From NCBI GenBank assembly GCA_030652805.1, contig JAUSPT010000024.1:37050-101049 (forward strand): DNA of 64,000 bases, given 5' to 3'. Below the pieces are notes generated by a model. That model was given only the letters and a program-made list of their open reading frames with translations. It made no database searches and was not told the DNA's origin. Below, one piece after another: positions 14,627 to 59,368 of this stretch (the first letter of the stretch is position 1; the number at the start of each line of letters is the position of its first letter). Both the position numbers and the translations under genes were made by a program. Origin of the DNA: a bacterium (lineage in GTDB: Bacteria; JAHJDO01).

Positions 14627-16696
14627 ATGCAAATTGGAGATGTTAAAAAGATAAGAAATATCGGCATTATGGCTCATATTGATGCGGGTAAAACGACAAC
14701 AACAGAAAGAATGCTATTCTTTGCAGGCAGGATACATCGCATAGGCGAAGTTCATGACGGGGCTGCTACAATGGACTGGATGGAACAGGAAAGAGAGAGG
14801 GGAATAACAATCACGTCTGCGGCCACAACATGTATCTGGCGTAAGCATCATATTAATATCATTGACACTCCAGGGCATGTAGATTTCACTGCAGAGGTAG
14901 AACGAAGTCTAAGGGTTTTAGATGGTGCAGTAGCAATATTTTGCGCAGTTGGCGGTGTAGAGCCGCAAACTGAAACTGTATGGAGGCAGTCGGAAAAATA
15001 TAAAATTCCCAAGATTGTCTTTATTAATAAAATGGATAGAATTGGAGCAGATTTTTTTGCTGTACTTGAGATGATAGACAAGAAACTTGGAGTTAACTAT
15101 GTGCCAATTCAGTTGCCTATTGGAAAGGAAGATAATTTTCATGGCATTATAGATATTGTGGAAGAAAAGGCATTTTTCTTCAATCCGGAAGACGCTATGG
15201 AAGAGCCGAAAGAACGAGAAATTCCAGAAGACTATGTAAAGATGACGAAGAAATATAGAAATGAGCTAATAGAAAAACTTGCTGACACAGATGACAGTCT
15301 CATGAATAAATATATTGAAAATCAGCCCATTACAATAGAGGAAATTAAGAATTCTCTTAACAAAGCAACTATAAAATCCGAGATATTCCCTGTGCTGTGC
15401 GGCGCAGCTTTCAAGAACAAGGGAGTCAGGAGGCTTATGGAAGCTGTTGTCGATTACCTGCCAAGTCCAGAAGAGGCCCCCCCTGTAGAAGTTATAGATA
15501 GTGATTCAGGAGAAAAGAGCCTGTTCAGTTTCGGAGAAAAAAAGGATTTATTGGGGCTCGCTTTTAAGATTGCTGTTGACCCTCATATTGGAAAACTTGT
15601 TTATTGCAGAATATATTCGGGTTCAATAAAACAAGGTGAATATGTTTTCAAGGCAGGGTCATCAAAGAAAGAAAGAATATCCCGTATTGTAAAGATGCAC
15701 GCTAATAAAAAAGAAGCTGTGAATAGTCTCAGCGCAGGAGATATAGGAGCAATAATCGGGCCAATGAACATTACTACTGGAGATACAATATGTAAACAAA
15801 ATTCTAATCTTTTTCTCGAGAACATAGAATTTCCAACACCTGTAATTTCAGTGGCAATTGAAGCAAAGAACAAGATTGAGCAAGAGAAACTTTCGGATTC
15901 CATAAGAAAATTATCTAATGAGGACCCGACATTTAATTTCTTTTTTAATGAAGAGACATCCCAAACTATTCTTTCTGGTATGGGTGAACTGCATCTTGAG
16001 ATCCTGGTAGATAGATTAAAGAGGGAGTTTAAAGTGTCTGCGAATGTAGGCAAGCCTAAAGTTGCTTTCAAGGAGACAATAACCAATATTCAGGAAGAAA
16101 AATACAAACATCAGAAGCAAACTGGTGGAAGAGGGCAATTTGCAGAAGTACACATAGAACTAATTCCTGCAAAGAGAGGTGAAGGGTTCGAATTTATTAA
16201 TGATATCAAGCAGGGAGCTATTCCAAGAGAATTTATTCCTGCTGTTGAAAAGGGCTGTATTGAGGCAATGGAAGCAGGAATTTTTGCGGGATATCCTGTA
16301 ATTGATGTAAAAGTAAGATTATTTGACGGAAGATTTCACGAAGTTGACTCTTCTGAAATAGCTTTTAAGGTAGCCGGGTACTATGCATTCAAAAGTGCGT
16401 TTATGAAGGCAGGTCCAAGGCTTGTTGAGCCGATTATGACAGTAGATATATCTACTCCGGAAGAGTATTTTGGTTCAATCATGTCTGATATAACATCAAG
16501 AAGAGGTAAGATAATCCTGATAGAAAAAAAGGCTAAGAGCCAGTTAATAAAGGCTGAGGTTCCGCTTATGGAACTTTTCGGTTACGCTACACAGCTGAGA
16601 TCACTATCACAGGGACGAGCAACAGAGTCTATGCGGTTTGAAAGATATGACAAAGCTCCTCCGCATGTTGTCAGTAAAATAATAGAAGACAATTAA
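14627..16696 (+). CDS. fusA: elongation factor G (likely a second EF-G paralog; not in an rpsL-rpsG operon)
   Basis: [13 protein letters not shown]1 motif, [16 protein letters not shown] domains IV/V ([13 protein letters not shown]). Confidence 0.85.
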
Positions 16697-23229: not shown

Positions 23230-23326
23230 AGATCAAAAGTTAGAAAAAGTAAAATTTTGAGATAAAAAAGGCACAAAGTGACAAAGGCGCAAAAGATGCT
23301 CGTTTACATAACGGAGAGTGAATATA

Positions 23327-23407
23327 AACTCACCCTGACCCTCTCTTGAGTAGAGAGGGAATGTTCCCCTTCTCTGTCAAGAGAAGGGGCGAGGGGATGA
23401 GTTGAGT
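23327..23407. repeat. composite inverted pair of a short dispersed repeat (second copy at 60721-60753)
   Basis: AAACTCACCCTGACCCTCTCTTGAGTAGAGAGGG ... CCCCTTCTCTGTCAAGAGAAGGGGCGAGGGGATGAGTTGAGTT. Each half is a hairpin (CCCTCTC..GAGAGGG) plus GGGTGAGTT tail, matching 60721-60753 in both orientations. Confidence 0.55.
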
Positions 23408-24059: not shown

Positions 24060-25439
24060 ATGGAGACGATTCTAATAGTAGATGATGAGAAGGACTTGCG
24101 TTTTAATCTTTCCAACATTTTGAAGGACGAAGGTTACAACGCAATCGCTGTGGGAGACGGAAGGAAAGCGCTTAATGCAGTTAAGAAAAATTCTCCCAAT
24201 TTGGTCCTGCTGGATATGAAGCTTCCTGAAATGGATGGGATGCAGATTCTAGAGAAGATGAAGCTGATTGATAAGGATTTGATTATTATAATGCTTACTG
24301 CTTATGGAAATCTAAATGGAGCGGTAAAAGCAATGAAATTAGGGGCATTTGACTATCTTGCCAAGCCTTTTGATAATGAAGAATTAATTCTTGTAATAAA
24401 AAGGGCTCTTCGGACCCAATATTTAGCCAAGGAAGTAGAAACTCTAAAAAAACGGGTTGGTGAAAAAATTACAGCAGAAGAGCTAATGGGAGAAAGCCCT
24501 CAAATAAAGCAAGTCTTAAAACAGATTAAGATAATTGCTCCGACCAATATGACTGTAATACTTCAAGGTGAAAGCGGAACAGGCAAGGAATTGATTGCTC
24601 AGATGATCCATCAGGAAAGTCCGCGAAAAAATGACCCTTTTATTGCTATAGACTGTGGCGCAATTCCCGATACATTGGCTGAGAGTGAACTCTTTGGTCA
24701 TGAGAAAGGCGCCTTTACAGGAGCTGATGCTCAAAAAGAAGGCAGGTTTGAAGAGGCTAATGGAGGAACTCTGTTTCTGGATGAGATTACAAATCTCTCT
24801 TCTACTACGCAGAGAAAACTTCTCAGAGTGATACAGGAAAGAAGGCTTCAGCATATAGGCGGCAAGAGAAGTATAAAAGTTGACGTCAGAATAATCGTGG
24901 CTACGAACATTAATCTCTCAGGCGCGGTAAGGCGGGGTAAATTTAGAGAGGACCTCTTCCATAGGTTAAATGAATTTCATATTTCACTTCCCCCGCTTCG
25001 GGAAAGAAAAGATGACATCCCCCATTTAGCCATGCGTTTTTTGGGGGGAGGAAATCAGGAATTAAATAAAAAAATAGAAGGGTTTTCTTCTGATGTAATG
25101 AAATTGCTTCTGGATTATCCCTGGCCGGGCAATGTTAGAGAATTAAAGAATGTAGTCAGAAAAGCAGTGCTTCTGTGCGATTCCAATCATATCAAACCGG
25201 AACACTTTCCATTAGATAATATTGCTTCCACTAAAAAGCTTGAATTTCAGCAGGATTTGGATAAAGGAGTCTCCCTCAAAGAGATAACTAAAAAAGCGAC
25301 AGGACAGATAGAAAAGGAAGCTATTGAGCAAGCACTGGCAAAAGCCGGCGGCAATAAAAGTAAAACCGCCAAAATCCTCAAAATAGACCGCATGACCCTC
25401 TATTCTAAGATGAAGGAATATCAGATACGTAGACTGTAA
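24060..25439 (+). CDS. sigma54-dependent transcriptional activator, NtrC family (receiver - AAA+ - Fis-type HTH). Candidate gas-vesicle regulator, GvrA-like
   Basis: Receiver LLDMKLPEMDG; Walker A GESGTGKE; GAFTGA motif; ESELFGHEKGAFTGA; C-terminal HTH KTAKILKIDRMTLYSKMK; immediately upstream of a sigma54 promoter and gvpA. Confidence 0.9.
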   Translation: METILIVDDEKDLRFNLSNILKDEGYNAIAVGDGRKALNAVKKNSPNLVLLDMKLPEMDGMQILEKMKLIDKDLIIIMLTAYGNLNGAVKAMKLGAFDYLAKPFDNEELILVIKRALRTQYLAKEVETLKKRVGEKITAEELMGESPQIKQVLKQIKIIAPTNMTVILQGESGTGKELIAQMIHQESPRKNDPFIAIDCGAIPDTLAESELFGHEKGAFTGADAQKEGRFEEANGGTLFLDEITNLSSTTQRKLLRVIQERRLQHIGGKRSIKVDVRIIVATNINLSGAVRRGKFREDLFHRLNEFHISLPPLRERKDDIPHLAMRFLGGGNQELNKKIEGFSSDVMKLLLDYPWPGNVRELKNVVRKAVLLCDSNHIKPEHFPLDNIASTKKLEFQQDLDKGVSLKEITKKATGQIEKEAIEQALAKAGGNKSKTAKILKIDRMTLYSKMKEYQIRRL

Positions 25440-25511
25440 ATCGTATATCGTATACAGCACACGGCTAACGAAATACGGACGACGAAATACGAAATACAGC
25501 ATGCAAAGCGC

Positions 25512-25529
25512 TGTAGAATAGAGTCTACA
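25512..25529. promoter_or_regulatory. palindromic upstream activator sequence candidate (TGTAGA-N6-TCTACA)
   Basis: Perfect 6-bp inverted repeat about 190 bp upstream of the -24 element; shares the half-site with the 25567 palindrome. Confidence 0.5.
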
Positions 25530-25566
25530 CTATATAAAGGAACACGTAGGGTTGTTGTAAAATAAA

Positions 25567-25584
25567 TTCTACACAGATGTAGAA
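25567..25584. promoter_or_regulatory. palindromic upstream activator sequence candidate (TTCTACA-CAGA-TGTAGAA)
   Basis: Perfect 7-bp inverted repeat about 120-135 bp upstream of the sigma54 -24/-12 element; typical bEBP enhancer distance. Confidence 0.55.
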
Positions 25585-25701
25585 ACAACTCTACGCTTTT
25601 TGCCTTTAAATTTCCTCTGCTTTTAAGCTCCTCAGAATTCTTTCAAAAGATATTTTTAAAAAAGAGGATACGCAAGCCGAAATTTTTTTTAGCAGATACT
25701 T

Positions 25702-25717
25702 TGGCACGGAATTTGCT
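25702..25717 (+). promoter_or_regulatory. sigma54 (RpoN) -24/-12 promoter of gvpA
   Basis: TGGCACGgaatTTGCt. Exact match to TGGCACG-N4-TTGCW with correct GG/GC spacing; about 113 bp upstream of gvpA ATG; NtrC-type activator encoded immediately upstream. Confidence 0.8.
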
Positions 25718-25830
25718 TTTACAATACAGATGGTCGCAGATGAAAAATCGCAGATGGGTACAGATGTTCAATCTGCGCTGGTCTGTGAAAATAATCTGCG
25801 CTAATCTGTGAAAGAGGGGAGGTGGAAAAA

Positions 25831-26037
25831 ATGGCAGTAGAAAAAGCAATCGGTTCATCTAGTTTGGTTGAGGTTATTGACAGAATCCTTGACAAGGGTG
25901 TTGTGGTTGATGCATGGGTTAGAATTTCTTTAGTTGGTATTGAATTACTCGCTATTGAAGCAAGAGTCGTAGTCGCATCAGTCGAGACATACCTGAAGTA
26001 TGCTGAAGCAATTGGTCTAACCGCAACAGCAGCTTAA
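25831..26037 (+). CDS. gvpA: gas vesicle structural protein GvpA
   Basis: [60 protein letters not shown]. Near-identical to the canonical GvpA core; AGGTGG RBS before ATG 25831 (ORF track starts at upstream GTG). Confidence 0.95.
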
Positions 26038-26226
26038 GTATAGTTTAAAAAAAGGATTCTTGCCGAGCCACCCTTTTGAGCGCAGATTGGCGCAGATGTA
26101 AAAGACAGATGCACACAGAGAAATCTGTGATAATCAGCGTAAAAAAATCAGTGTTAATCTGTGGTTTAAACAGCATGGTTCGCCAAGAGATTCCTTTTTC
26201 CGTTCTGAGAAAAAAGGGGTAAAATT

Positions 26227-26925
26227 ATGGGAAGTGCCGAGGAAATGAAGAATTTGGCGCAAGGAATTGTTTCTTCTTATCAGGCCAGAGTTTCTGAAGT
26301 AGCCACGGTCATGGACAATGCTCACCAAATTCTTGAAGATTTTAAGCTCAAAAGAAGTGAGATGAGCAGTCAACTTAGAGAAACCCTTGCCAATGGAGAG
26401 TCTCTCAGAAAAAAGGATTTTGATAATATGATGAAAGGCATCCTTTCCCATCAAGAAGAAAGAGAAAAAGAGGTAAAAGATTTATTAAAGACTTTTTTTG
26501 AAGAACAAAAAGAAATAGCTGAAGCCATTAGGAAGAATTTGGCCGAAGGCGAAAGCGTGAGAATAAGTGATTTTAAAAAGATGCTCCAGGATATTCAGGC
26601 AAGGCAGAAACTCAGGGAAAATGAAGTAAGAACGACCCTAAAGGAATTTCAGGAAGGACATAGGGAGATGGCTGAGTCTTTGCACAGCCTTTTAAATAAA
26701 GAAGAGTCCTTACGGATTGAGGACTTTAAAGAGATGCTAAAAGATATTCGTTCAAGACAGATAGAGCGGAAAAAAGAAGTCAGAACCAAACTTGATGAAT
26801 TCAGGAAAGAACATCAAAATATGACTTCCGAATGGAATAAACTAACCGGTCTTATGGCCGAGAAAAGAGCCAGCAAGCTGAGAGGAGGTGAGAGAGAGGA
26901 AAAGTTGGAAGTTGCCAGGGTTTAA
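26227..26925 (+). CDS. tandem-repeat coiled-coil protein, candidate GvpC-like gas vesicle scaffold/strengthening protein
   Basis: Three ~50-aa repeats of pattern L..GES.R..DFK.ML.DI..RQ..RE.EVR..L.EF...H..M; hydrophilic, predicted all-helical; directly downstream of gvpA as gvpC is in cyanobacteria. Confidence 0.5.
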   Translation: MGSAEEMKNLAQGIVSSYQARVSEVATVMDNAHQILEDFKLKRSEMSSQLRETLANGESLRKKDFDNMMKGILSHQEEREKEVKDLLKTFFEEQKEIAEAIRKNLAEGESVRISDFKKMLQDIQARQKLRENEVRTTLKEFQEGHREMAESLHSLLNKEESLRIEDFKEMLKDIRSRQIERKKEVRTKLDEFRKEHQNMTSEWNKLTGLMAEKRASKLRGGEREEKLEVARV

Positions 26926-26995
26926 TTTTGGATCCTGGGTAAGTAACCTGATGTATGGGAACTAAGAAACTAGAAGTTTAAGAGGAGGAATAAAG

Positions 26996-28027
26996 ATGGG
27001 AATAGCAAGTGATATCAAAGCACTGGGTGAGGACATTGTTGCCTCTTATGATACGCGAGTAAGGGCGATAGGTGTGCTTGTCAAGGACGTCGACAAAATG
27101 CTTAAGGGTCTTCATACGGATCATAAGAGTATGGCTGCCAATCTTAAAGCTGGCCTTAACAAGGGAGAAGAAGATAGGCTCAATGCCTTTAAGCCAATGA
27201 TAGCAGAAATTCAGAAGCGGACAAAGGAAATAGAAGTCTATGTTAAAACTCTGCTCAAAAAGTTTCACAGCGAGCATATGGAAATGTCTGCCAATCTTAA
27301 TGCCTCTCTTGCAAAAGGAGAAGAGGATCGACTTAAGGACTTTAGAGCAATGATGGCTGATGTTAAGAAGTTTGTAGCGGATATGGTTGATACGACTGCG
27401 AAACTGATGAAGCAAATTCAGGCTGAACAGAAAGATAGAAATAAAGGAGTAGCTGATCTCCTTGCAAAGTTTGCGCAAGACCATGCATCTATGGCAGATG
27501 AGCTTAGAAAAAGCCTTGCAAAAGGAGAAACAAACAGGCTTGAAGACTTCAAAAAGATGATAGATAGTATCCAAAAATATGTGGCTGATGTAATTAGTGC
27601 GACTAAGCAGCTAATTAGCGAAATTCAAGCAAGGCAGGATGAGAGAAACAAAGAGGTTCTTGCTCTCTTACAGGCATTCCAGGCCGAAAGAGAAAAGATG
27701 GCTGCTAACTGGCAGGCTCTGGCTGCAACAATGGAGAAGAGAAGAGGCGGTAAGCCGATTCCAGTTAAAGTAGAAGCCAGGCAGGAAGTAAAGACTGTTG
27801 AAGAGGCAGTGAAAGAAAAACCCAAAGCTAAACCTAAGGCTGGGCCTAAACCCAAAACACCTGAAGGTCAGATATTAGCTTTGCTTAGGGAGCATGCTGA
27901 AGGCATGAGCTTGCCGAATTTAGGAAATGAAGCAGGCTGCCACTTTATAAAGCTGACCAGTCCAATGAGAGGTCTGCTGGATAAAGGCAAAGTTAGAAAA
28001 GAAGATAATCTTTACTTTATTGCTTAG
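26996..28027 (+). CDS. tandem-repeat coiled-coil protein (paralog of 26227 gene) with K/P-rich linker and C-terminal winged-helix-like domain
   Basis: Repeats ...SLAKGEEDRLKDF.AMM.D..K.V.D...; KPKAKPKAGPKPKTPEG linker; C-terminal ILALLREHAEGMSLPNL... Confidence 0.5.
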   Translation: MGIASDIKALGEDIVASYDTRVRAIGVLVKDVDKMLKGLHTDHKSMAANLKAGLNKGEEDRLNAFKPMIAEIQKRTKEIEVYVKTLLKKFHSEHMEMSANLNASLAKGEEDRLKDFRAMMADVKKFVADMVDTTAKLMKQIQAEQKDRNKGVADLLAKFAQDHASMADELRKSLAKGETNRLEDFKKMIDSIQKYVADVISATKQLISEIQARQDERNKEVLALLQAFQAEREKMAANWQALAATMEKRRGGKPIPVKVEARQEVKTVEEAVKEKPKAKPKAGPKPKTPEGQILALLREHAEGMSLPNLGNEAGCHFIKLTSPMRGLLDKGKVRKEDNLYFIA

Positions 28028-49203: not shown

Positions 49204-49408
49204 CTATTATGAAGATGAAATATCAAATCACAAATAACAAATCTCAAACAAATTCAAAATTTCAATTTTCAAAATTCAAAGACAGAGCAATTTTGATCAT
49301 TGGTTATTTGGTCATTGTGATTTGTTTGTTATTTGGTACTTGGTACTTGGAATTTTAAAATTTATACTAACTTAGAGTTAAACATTTACAAGAGAGGAAA
49401 TTTTTTTT

Positions 49409-59187: not shown

Positions 59188-59368
59188 AGCAACATTGTTC
59201 TTTAAAAATTAATTATTTTTCAGTTTTGCCTTAAAGAAGCTTTGGCTTCTCACCGCAAAGTGAGGTAGAGCTGTCATATCGCTGTCCTTCGGGATGGCGA
59301 GGGGTGGCAGTCTTTATCGGATTCACTTTGCGGTGGCCGATATAGATGTTTGCGCCCCTTTTTTATTG
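59188..59368 (+). ncRNA. candidate small RNA or structured leader (promoter to U-run)
   Basis: Begins downstream of TTGACA/TACTAT promoter; contains long-range inverted repeat CACCGCAAAGTG...CACTTTGCGGTG, CTTCGG-looped hairpin; ends GCGCCCCTTTTTT at 59357-59368. Confidence 0.3.

Follow-up and report, generated by a model that had tools for sequence, protein, structure and literature searches.

Gene-less members of a GxxExxY-linked palindromic repeat family on both sides of a bacterial gvpA gene, and their possible retention as stem-loops of the gvpA mRNA

In the 64-kb stretch of bacterial DNA analysed here (64,000 nucleotides of contig JAUSPT010000024.1, hereafter the window), the gas-vesicle gene gvpA is bracketed by two arrays of CAGAT-type heptamers, one placed in its 5' untranslated region (UTR) and the other in the tip of the stem-loop that follows the gene. 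The evidence gives good support to both arrays being gene-less members of a palindromic repeat family whose full-length members hold a GxxExxY nuclease gene at their centre; they are not gvpA-specific in origin and belong to a dispersed repeat family. The overall best explanation for their presence, held with moderate confidence, is that the gene-less copies at gvpA have been retained for a role as stem-loops in stabilising or processing the gvpA mRNA.

The first-pass annotation of this DNA had described dense motif arrays around gvpA, and motif counts bear it out. CRCAGAT occurs 24 times in the window relative to 10.3 ± 2.9 expected, a number that none of 100 shuffles reaches, and nine of these copies fall within 25735-26163, which makes up 0.7% of the window (Poisson estimate from the counts, by our own arithmetic: lambda ~0.16, P(≥9) ~1e-13). 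Each array consists of four forward CAGAT-type heptamers and then four reverse ATCTG-type heptamers, a feature overlooked in the annotation, with spacings that mirror each other about the centre of the array, so that each array is self-complementary and forms a long imperfect palindrome. Units are spaced by 24 nt on the forward side and 23-24 nt on the reverse side. In ~73 kb of this genome, namely the window and the 8.7 kb upstream of it, just these two copies exist, both flanking the same 207-bp gene, and no additional array was found in those 8.7 kb.

The 5' array (25725-25811, + strand) is an imperfect hairpin of 87 nt within the 5' UTR of gvpA, starting where transcription is predicted to begin. 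Its forward arm (25726-25767, + strand) comprises two 24-nt units, each with two CAGATG heptamers 10 nt apart, and the copies start at 25727, 25737, 25751, and 25761, so that the CAGATG copies previously counted as three are indeed there but number four. Its reverse arm (25770-25813, + strand), with copies starting at 25771, 25782, 25794, and 25804, is made of the two 21-nt direct repeats AATCTGCGCTnnTCTGTGAAA already recognised at 25770-25790 and 25793-25813, which are 90% identical, 23 nt apart, and arranged like the reverse arms of the gene-bearing cassettes described below (ATCTGTGATAATCTGTGAA). The 3' array (26076-26172, + strand) is a ~97-nt hairpin with forward copies within 26080-26119 (starting at 26083, 26093, 26106, and 26115) and reverse copies within 26123-26163 (starting at 26123, 26133, 26147, and 26157). 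As annotated, the inverse motif GCGCAGAT appears here twice, at 26080-26087 and 26090-26097, together with ACAGATG (26105-26111) and CACAGAG (26113-26119), while the reverse side shows ATCTGTG at 26123 and 26157 and the degenerate ATCAGCG and ATCAGTG at 26133 and 26147, respectively. A likeness of the heptamers to DnaA, LexA, or Fur boxes was judged by eye and dropped, their sequences not matching. Rfam gave no match at gathering score in the region, 20 related loci, a cassette locus, or the whole window, returning solely tRNAs and sub-threshold chance matches.

An exact-motif census of the loci found through GvpA returned few clusters, and the relaxed motif CRCRGAT was needed to reveal the family. 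In locus L082 the relaxed census showed forward and reverse arrays ~370 bp apart with an open reading frame (ORF) between them. This ORF (1028-1429) encodes a GxxExxY protein (TIGR04256, E 7.9e-31; PF13366, PDDEXK_3, E 1.1e-30) and is flanked by CACAGAT arrays, its start codon and first codons lying inside the forward one. The same forward (CACAGATGATCRCAGATGARAAGA) and reverse (ATCTGTGATAATCTGTG) arms were found in all seven cassettes with DNA (L082, L162, L165, L169, L171, L172, and L173), built from CRCAGAT heptamers in the forward arm and ATCTGYG heptamers in the reverse arm, in tandem units of 23-24 nt that contain two heptamers ~10 nt apart each. Their layout reads ...ACACAG ATG ATC RCA GAT GAR AAG A CAC AG ATG ATC ACA GAT, then the ORF, then TA ATCTGTGATCATCTG ... 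ATCTGTGATAATCTGTG, and the arms of one cassette co-fold at -41 to -62 kcal/mol. Every cassette sits between two same-strand host genes, these being type II secretion E/F, histidine kinase/response regulator, polysaccharide, radical-SAM/uroporphyrinogen decarboxylase, and nicotinate-nucleotide pyrophosphorylase/uvrB genes, as well as, in L082, the activator gene and gvpA. Among the 120 closest homologues of the L082 protein, with source names that include Omnitrophica and Nitrospira (uncultured bacteria), 98 start with M-x-[A/T]-[D/E] and 24 carry MI[A/T]DEKxQMxTD, the peptide obtained when the forward arm is translated in frame.

The palindrome also exists without its gene outside gas-vesicle loci, with three such copies in L171 beside an occupied one and another in L173 between a pantothenate-kinase-like gene and groES, upstream of the latter. 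In these copies the arms meet at CACAGAT/ATCTGTG, the exact position of the ORF in occupied copies, and the vacant centre is CACAGATATCTGTG. In L171 (9761-10522) two gene-less CAGAT palindromes, the occupied GxxExxY cassette, and one more gene-less palindrome stand in tandem in one polysaccharide-operon spacer.

The window arrays share with this family the heptamer arms, the 23-24-nt units, and the in-frame N-terminal reading. The 5' array reads MVADEKSQMGTD at 25730, the only six-frame match to M[IV][AT]DEKxQMxTD in the window and one that did not appear in 200 shuffles, and the best match in the window to the L169 forward arm is at positions 25726-25746 (95% identity over 21 nt, E 1.4e-4). 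The 3' array is, by reading of the sequence, a degenerate and frame-broken version of the same N-terminal reading (SADWRRCKRQMHTE). What they do not hold is the GxxExxY/PDDEXK_3 gene at the palindrome centre, since no such gene was found in the window or in the 8.7 kb beyond, and tblastn over the window and all gvp loci detected it in L082 only. Judged by their sequence, the window arrays thus match the gene-less state known from L171 and L173. In the literature on GxxExxY, PF13366, and TIGR04256 no account of flanking arrays was found, and PF13366 is listed as a family of unknown function. Elsewhere in L169 (2852-3340), a gene of the 23S_rRNA_IVP family (PF05635) between two response-regulator genes is preceded by ~5 AGCGTT-type copies and followed by ~4 AACGCT-type copies, in the same design as the GxxExxY cassettes.

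Because GvpA is too conserved to reveal close relatives, metagenomes were searched with the 232-aa protein encoded downstream of gvpA; in public assemblies this query matched the source contig alone. The closest loci are L082 and L083, with 88% identity in the 232-aa protein and gvpA genes that differ from that of the window at 3 of 207 nt. Both loci have the sigma54 promoter, identical in L082, and the enhancer-like repeats, and L082 also keeps the activator gene, yet both arrays are absent from it. The 5' UTR of L082 and L083 is ~50 nt shorter and holds just a small CAGA/TCTG hairpin, and their stem-loop after gvpA displays a ~20-nt apical segment instead of the 3' array. Given the same promoter and a near-identical gvpA, both window arrays are therefore recent gains (insertions or expansions) and not conserved operators. 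When the sequences on either side of gvpA were compared by BLAST with 80 genome loci retrieved through GvpA, conservation was limited to the outer helices of the 3' element and one enhancer-like repeat and did not extend to the arrays.

At related gvpA loci, for which the first-pass annotation had proposed a motif search, the relaxed census detected like arrays upstream of gvpA in L135 and downstream of the conserved element in L002, in a set of loci gathered through gvp genes from which enrichment at gvpA is not measurable. It also detected an array in L149 immediately before the AbrB-like gene of a different gvp cluster. The latter, together with heptamer spacings of 10, 14, 10 bp and so on that are close to helical repeats, would suit the proposal that the arrays are iterated DNA operators, exposed on one helix face at 10-14 bp spacings, for a winged-helix, AbrB-like, or response-regulator protein of the gvp locus. 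Nonetheless, considering that (i) the closest relative does without the arrays despite having the same promoter, enhancer-like repeats, and activator gene, (ii) GxxExxY genes with the same arms on either side are found in operons unrelated to gas vesicles (type II secretion, polysaccharide, two-component, and uvrB), (iii) the heptamer distances are a consequence of the 24-nt tandem unit, in which the nuclease N-terminus is also encoded, and (iv) the mismatches are strand-biased G.U pairs, operator action is regarded as very improbable.

Folding predictions point instead to the RNA level. The 5' array (25725-25811) folds with a minimum free energy (MFE) of -41.4 kcal/mol (z -6.8), a stability that none of 200 shuffles attains, and its hairpin ranks fourth in stability among the 110-nt stretches of the window; it starts at 25725, next to the transcription start predicted from the sigma54 -12 element at ~25727-25729. 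The region after gvpA (26049-26199) is folded as a single ~150-nt hairpin of -58.9 kcal/mol (z -5.9), and when the whole transcript is folded both arrays pair internally, as local hairpins.

These folds bear on the other mechanism advanced in the annotation, by which the 5' reverse arm would pair with the 3' forward arm and vice versa, looping the gvpA mRNA and controlling its stability or translation. The complementarity it had noted between the upstream and downstream sets does exist (15 nt at 93%), the 5' reverse and 3' forward arms pair at -43.2 kcal/mol, and full cross-pairing of the arrays (-72.3 kcal/mol) is almost iso-energetic with the two local hairpins (-73.5 kcal/mol). This complementarity arises, however, because both sets are copies of one palindromic repeat, and two such copies are always mutually complementary by construction. 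On the contrary, both the MFE structure and the ensemble of the whole transcript are local, with 27.1 expected internal pairs for the 5' array versus 2.5 with the 3' UTR; the 5' hairpin can already have formed by the time transcription reaches the 3' array, and ribosomes translating gvpA would work against a long-range duplex. Thus, a role on the gvpA transcript is plausible, as had been suggested, but in the form of two local hairpins, and a 5'/3' UTR duplex is given hardly any credence.

Comparison of both strands reveals a further trait of the window copies. The 5' array folds at -41.9 kcal/mol in the sense strand and at -27.9 kcal/mol in the antisense one, and the 3' array at -31.6 and -16.5 kcal/mol, respectively, in both cases with six G.U pairs versus one. 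Pooled over both arrays the G.U pairs amount to 12:2 (one-sided binomial p ~0.007, by our own arithmetic), and such strand-biased G.U imperfections are a signature of RNA and not of duplex DNA. In other members of the family both strands fold about equally; asymmetry as a family-wide property was therefore rejected, being displayed by the two window copies only.

This asymmetry is relevant when considering that the arrays might be neutral selfish passengers, a mobile or expanding palindromic repeat having landed in tolerant non-coding spots around gvpA with no selected effect. Such an origin would be consistent with the presence or absence of the arrays differing between close relatives, with the family being found in many unrelated intergenic spacers, and with other iterated-motif hairpins occurring in the window (25434-25499 and 49212-49356). 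Retention for a role in the RNA is nonetheless favoured because the 6:1 sense-strand G.U bias is present in both window copies and absent in the other family members, because the sole two copies in ~73 kb flank one short gene, and because related arrays recur beside gvpA in other lineages, on the 5' side in L135, on the 3' side in L002, and as L087-type tips of the 3' element. Neutral passage is thus left as a possible but rather unlikely account.

The structure on which the 3' array is mounted is itself conserved. This stem-loop (26051-26201, + strand) has outer helices at 26051-26075 and 26173-26199, its tip being replaced by the array, and the window sequence 26051-26201 matches the full covariance model with 47.8 bits (E 1.4e-10). 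In an alignment of 20 loci, 22 pairs were found with 94% of cells paired, 14 of the pairs showing changes on both sides, while none of 500 shuffles reached this covariation and slid controls stayed ~50% paired. Across loci L001-L161, the covariance model, scoring the sense strand far above the antisense one, placed the element after gvpA in ~60 of 80 genome loci that belong to many phyla, among them that of a Chlorobium phaeovibrioides isolate, and the element also follows gvpA in most of the metagenome loci examined. It has no Rfam family, and no description of it was found in the literature searched. Its helices take the form AGGAUUCUUG-C-CGAGYCAU ... AUGRCUCG-C-CAAGAAAUCCU, with conserved CCUU and AAAGCAU. 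In eight loci (L087, L091, L092, L094, L101, L127, L139, and L145) a hairpin GCCCCGTTAGAAAT..ATTTCTAAGCGGGGT is inserted at one position between the gvpA stop codon and the conserved element.

The apical segment of the element is its variable portion. In a rough count by regular expression it spans 20-29 nt in 78 loci and 40-46 nt in ~10, most of the latter carrying short CACGGA/TCCGTG arms; the ~97 nt of the window, a length taken by reading the sequence because the expression missed this copy, is the largest true case seen. The 3' array takes the place of the ~20-nt apical segment of L082 and most loci, and these varied lengths indicate that the tip of the stem-loop was colonised more than once.

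The occurrence of a conserved structure after gvpA in most bacterial loci examined counts in favour of an action on the mRNA. In haloarchaea, the stem-loop between gvpA and gvpC stabilises the gvpA mRNA, which has a half-life of ~90 min versus 10 min for the long transcript, and does not terminate transcription (PMC4390858); this is a direct precedent that supports the mRNA-stabilising reading, and the bacterial element is likely the counterpart of the haloarchaeal one. Following this reading, the sigma54 promoter would drive transcription of both arrays together with gvpA, and each array would fold alone. The 5' copy would bury the very 5' end of the message in its 87-nt hairpin, and the 3' copy would lengthen the conserved stem-loop to ~150 nt. 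Such end structures would be expected to protect the gvpA segment against decay, whether 5'-end-dependent or 3'-exonucleolytic, or, alternatively, to act as sites for double-strand-specific (RNase III-type) processing, by analogy with the intervening sequences (IVS) of rRNA. In either case the gvpA message would be expected to be more abundant than that of the downstream gvp genes, and neither operator action nor 5'/3' pairing would be required.

Several points weigh against retention for such a role. The start of transcription, the ends of the RNA, and its half-lives are predictions; the closest relative manages without arrays, so any benefit they confer must be dispensable; and no GxxExxY gene was found in the ~73 kb of this genome that were covered. 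In addition, the G.U strand bias could partly stem from mutation bias instead of selection, two copies around one gene could come from local duplication without selection, and RNase III cuts in long helices can destabilise a message, so that the effect may have either sign.

As for the locus itself, gvpA occupies 25831-26037 (+ strand; 68 codons plus stop), is assigned to PF00741 in the gene call of L081, a contig identical to the window, and has its ATG at 25831, a coordinate corrected here relative to the annotation. A Shine-Dalgarno-like GAGGGGAGGTGG at ~25813-25825 lies outside the 5' hairpin. The promoter TGGCACGGAATTTGCT (25702-25717, + strand; GG at 25703-4 and GC at 25715-6) is the sole perfect match in the window to the sigma54 consensus TGGCAC-N5-TTGCT, and the start at ~25727-25729 is predicted from the distances typical of -24/-12 promoters. 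An NtrC-type sigma54 activator gene (24060-25439, from the Pfam domains of L081) ends ~390 bp upstream of gvpA, and three TGTAGA..TCTACA inverted repeats between them (25512-25596, no strand), which are not part of the arrays, look like enhancers, or upstream activating sequences, that probably serve this activator. They are kept in L082, and a similar TCTACA..TGTAGA repeat lies upstream of L002 gvpA.

A consensus scan for sigma70 promoters and terminators gave nothing relevant on the + strand, where no intrinsic terminator, that is, a G+C-rich stem followed by a free U tract, was found in 25300-26400; the T run at 26194-26198 is itself paired inside the outer helix of the 3' stem-loop in the predicted fold. 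After gvpA, two genes (26227-28027) encode repeat-rich proteins of 232 and 343 aa, which are probably coiled coils and match no Pfam family above threshold, and the first of them is kept next to gvpA in 80 metagenome loci at 50-88% identity. The window comes from a deep lineage, its elongation factor EF-G (14627-16696) being identical to that of a metagenome-assembled genome and having two relatives at 92-93% identity, with all others at ≤59% and named taxa at ≤58%.

Other hairpins were observed in the window. That at 25434-25499, right after the activator gene, iterates ATCGTAT forward and ACGAAAT/ATACGAA in reverse, at the place where L082 has its GxxExxY cassette. An AT-rich intergenic palindrome at 49212-49356, between the genes of phosphotransferase system (PTS) enzyme I and phosphoglucose isomerase, iterates CAAAT forward and ATTTG in reverse, with the same architecture and another motif. 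The most stable 110-nt structure of the window is intergenic (59235-59325; -60 kcal/mol sense, -39 antisense) and shows no iterated motif and no Rfam match. A strong intergenic hairpin at 23290-23400, formed by CCCTCTCT/AGAGAGGG and CCCCTTCTC/GAGAAGGGG blocks, resembles hairpins upstream of gvpA in L097, L106, L139, and L144. Many metagenome loci carry a motif GAGGTTnACCGCTCCTCA ... AAAAGCGGAATC ~20-100 nt upstream of gvpA (L087, L088, L089, L095, L096, L100, L107, L116, L119, L125, L126, L133, L136, L139, L141, and L144), whose loop CCGCT could pair with a downstream AGCGG in a pseudoknot-like manner; it is absent from the window, which has the sigma54 promoter.

Altogether, the story of a gvpA-specific regulator is replaced by one in which dispersed nuclease-linked palindromes provide RNA hairpins ready for grafting onto highly expressed genes. 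GxxExxY proteins (PF13366) gain a concrete genomic behaviour, with a gene centred in a repeat that also exists vacant, which makes their function experimentally approachable, and the covarying stem-loop after gvpA bears on the large excess of GvpA and on the design of gas-vesicle reporter operons. More speculatively, and with a confidence that we would call low, palindromes of iterated heptamers with or without a central GxxExxY or IVP-type ORF might constitute an undescribed IVS-like class that colonises hairpin tips and operon spacers. GxxExxY would then be a homing-type nuclease for the vacant centre CACAGAT/ATCTGTG, and the two vacant gvpA copies would have been put to use as stem-loops for end protection or processing, with one grafted onto the conserved 3' element.

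In their presumed function, the arrays are comparable to hairpins of the repetitive extragenic palindromic (REP)/REPIN or IVS type, yet they lack defining features of those families. REP-type palindromes stabilise upstream mRNA segments, and REP, REPIN, and BIME sequences are, like the arrays, dispersed intergenic palindromes that form hairpins on mRNA and whose copy number or presence varies between strains. Unlike them, the arrays have no GT[AG]G head, their arms beginning with CRCAGAT and ending with ATCTGYG; they consist of 7-mers every 10-14 nt, in two copies in ~73 kb; and their family holds a PD-(D/E)XK nuclease gene inside the palindrome, instead of a RAYT transposase elsewhere in the genome. 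Miniature inverted-repeat transposable elements (MITE) likewise include gene-less palindromes related to a gene-bearing copy and show presence or absence between close relatives. In the present family, however, 10 copies showed no target-site duplication in common in their flanking sequence, the gene involved encodes a nuclease and not a transposase, and the element forms a hairpin over its full length, the gene lying exactly in the middle.

In ompA-type leaders, a hairpin directly at the 5' terminus, leaving no unpaired 5' tail, slows RNase E/RppH-dependent decay. The 5' array would resemble them if transcription starts where predicted, although its hairpin is much longer and repeat-derived. 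The haloarchaeal gvpA-gvpC stem-loop is alike by position, being found directly after gvpA as the bacterial element is; it differs in being archaeal, with no repeat-family insert described there. Free-standing homing endonuclease genes resemble the GxxExxY cassettes as nuclease genes amid sequence that also occurs vacant (CACAGAT/ATCTGTG), occupied and vacant copies being found in one locus (L171), but the hypothetical target of GxxExxY is a dispersed palindromic repeat and not a conserved gene.

The IVS of 23S rRNA, regarded as selfish elements, are stem-loops that take the place of helix tips, may or may not carry an ORF, and are removed by RNase III (PMC4990558). In them, a long stem-loop with inverted repeats at its borders stands where an existing helix had a small tip, which is what the 3' array does in the window, and, as in the GxxExxY repeats, an ORF is found in the loop of some copies only and the distribution among relatives is patchy. 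They are hosted by 23S rRNA helices, whereas the window arrays, in a stretch without rRNA, reside in the gvpA 5' UTR and in the stem-loop after gvpA; the arms of the window family are moreover iterated heptamers in tandem units, and its ORF is a PD-(D/E)XK GxxExxY protein. In L169, the gene flanked by analogous arrays, of the other motif AGCGTT/AACGCT, is a member of the IVS protein family itself (PF05635).

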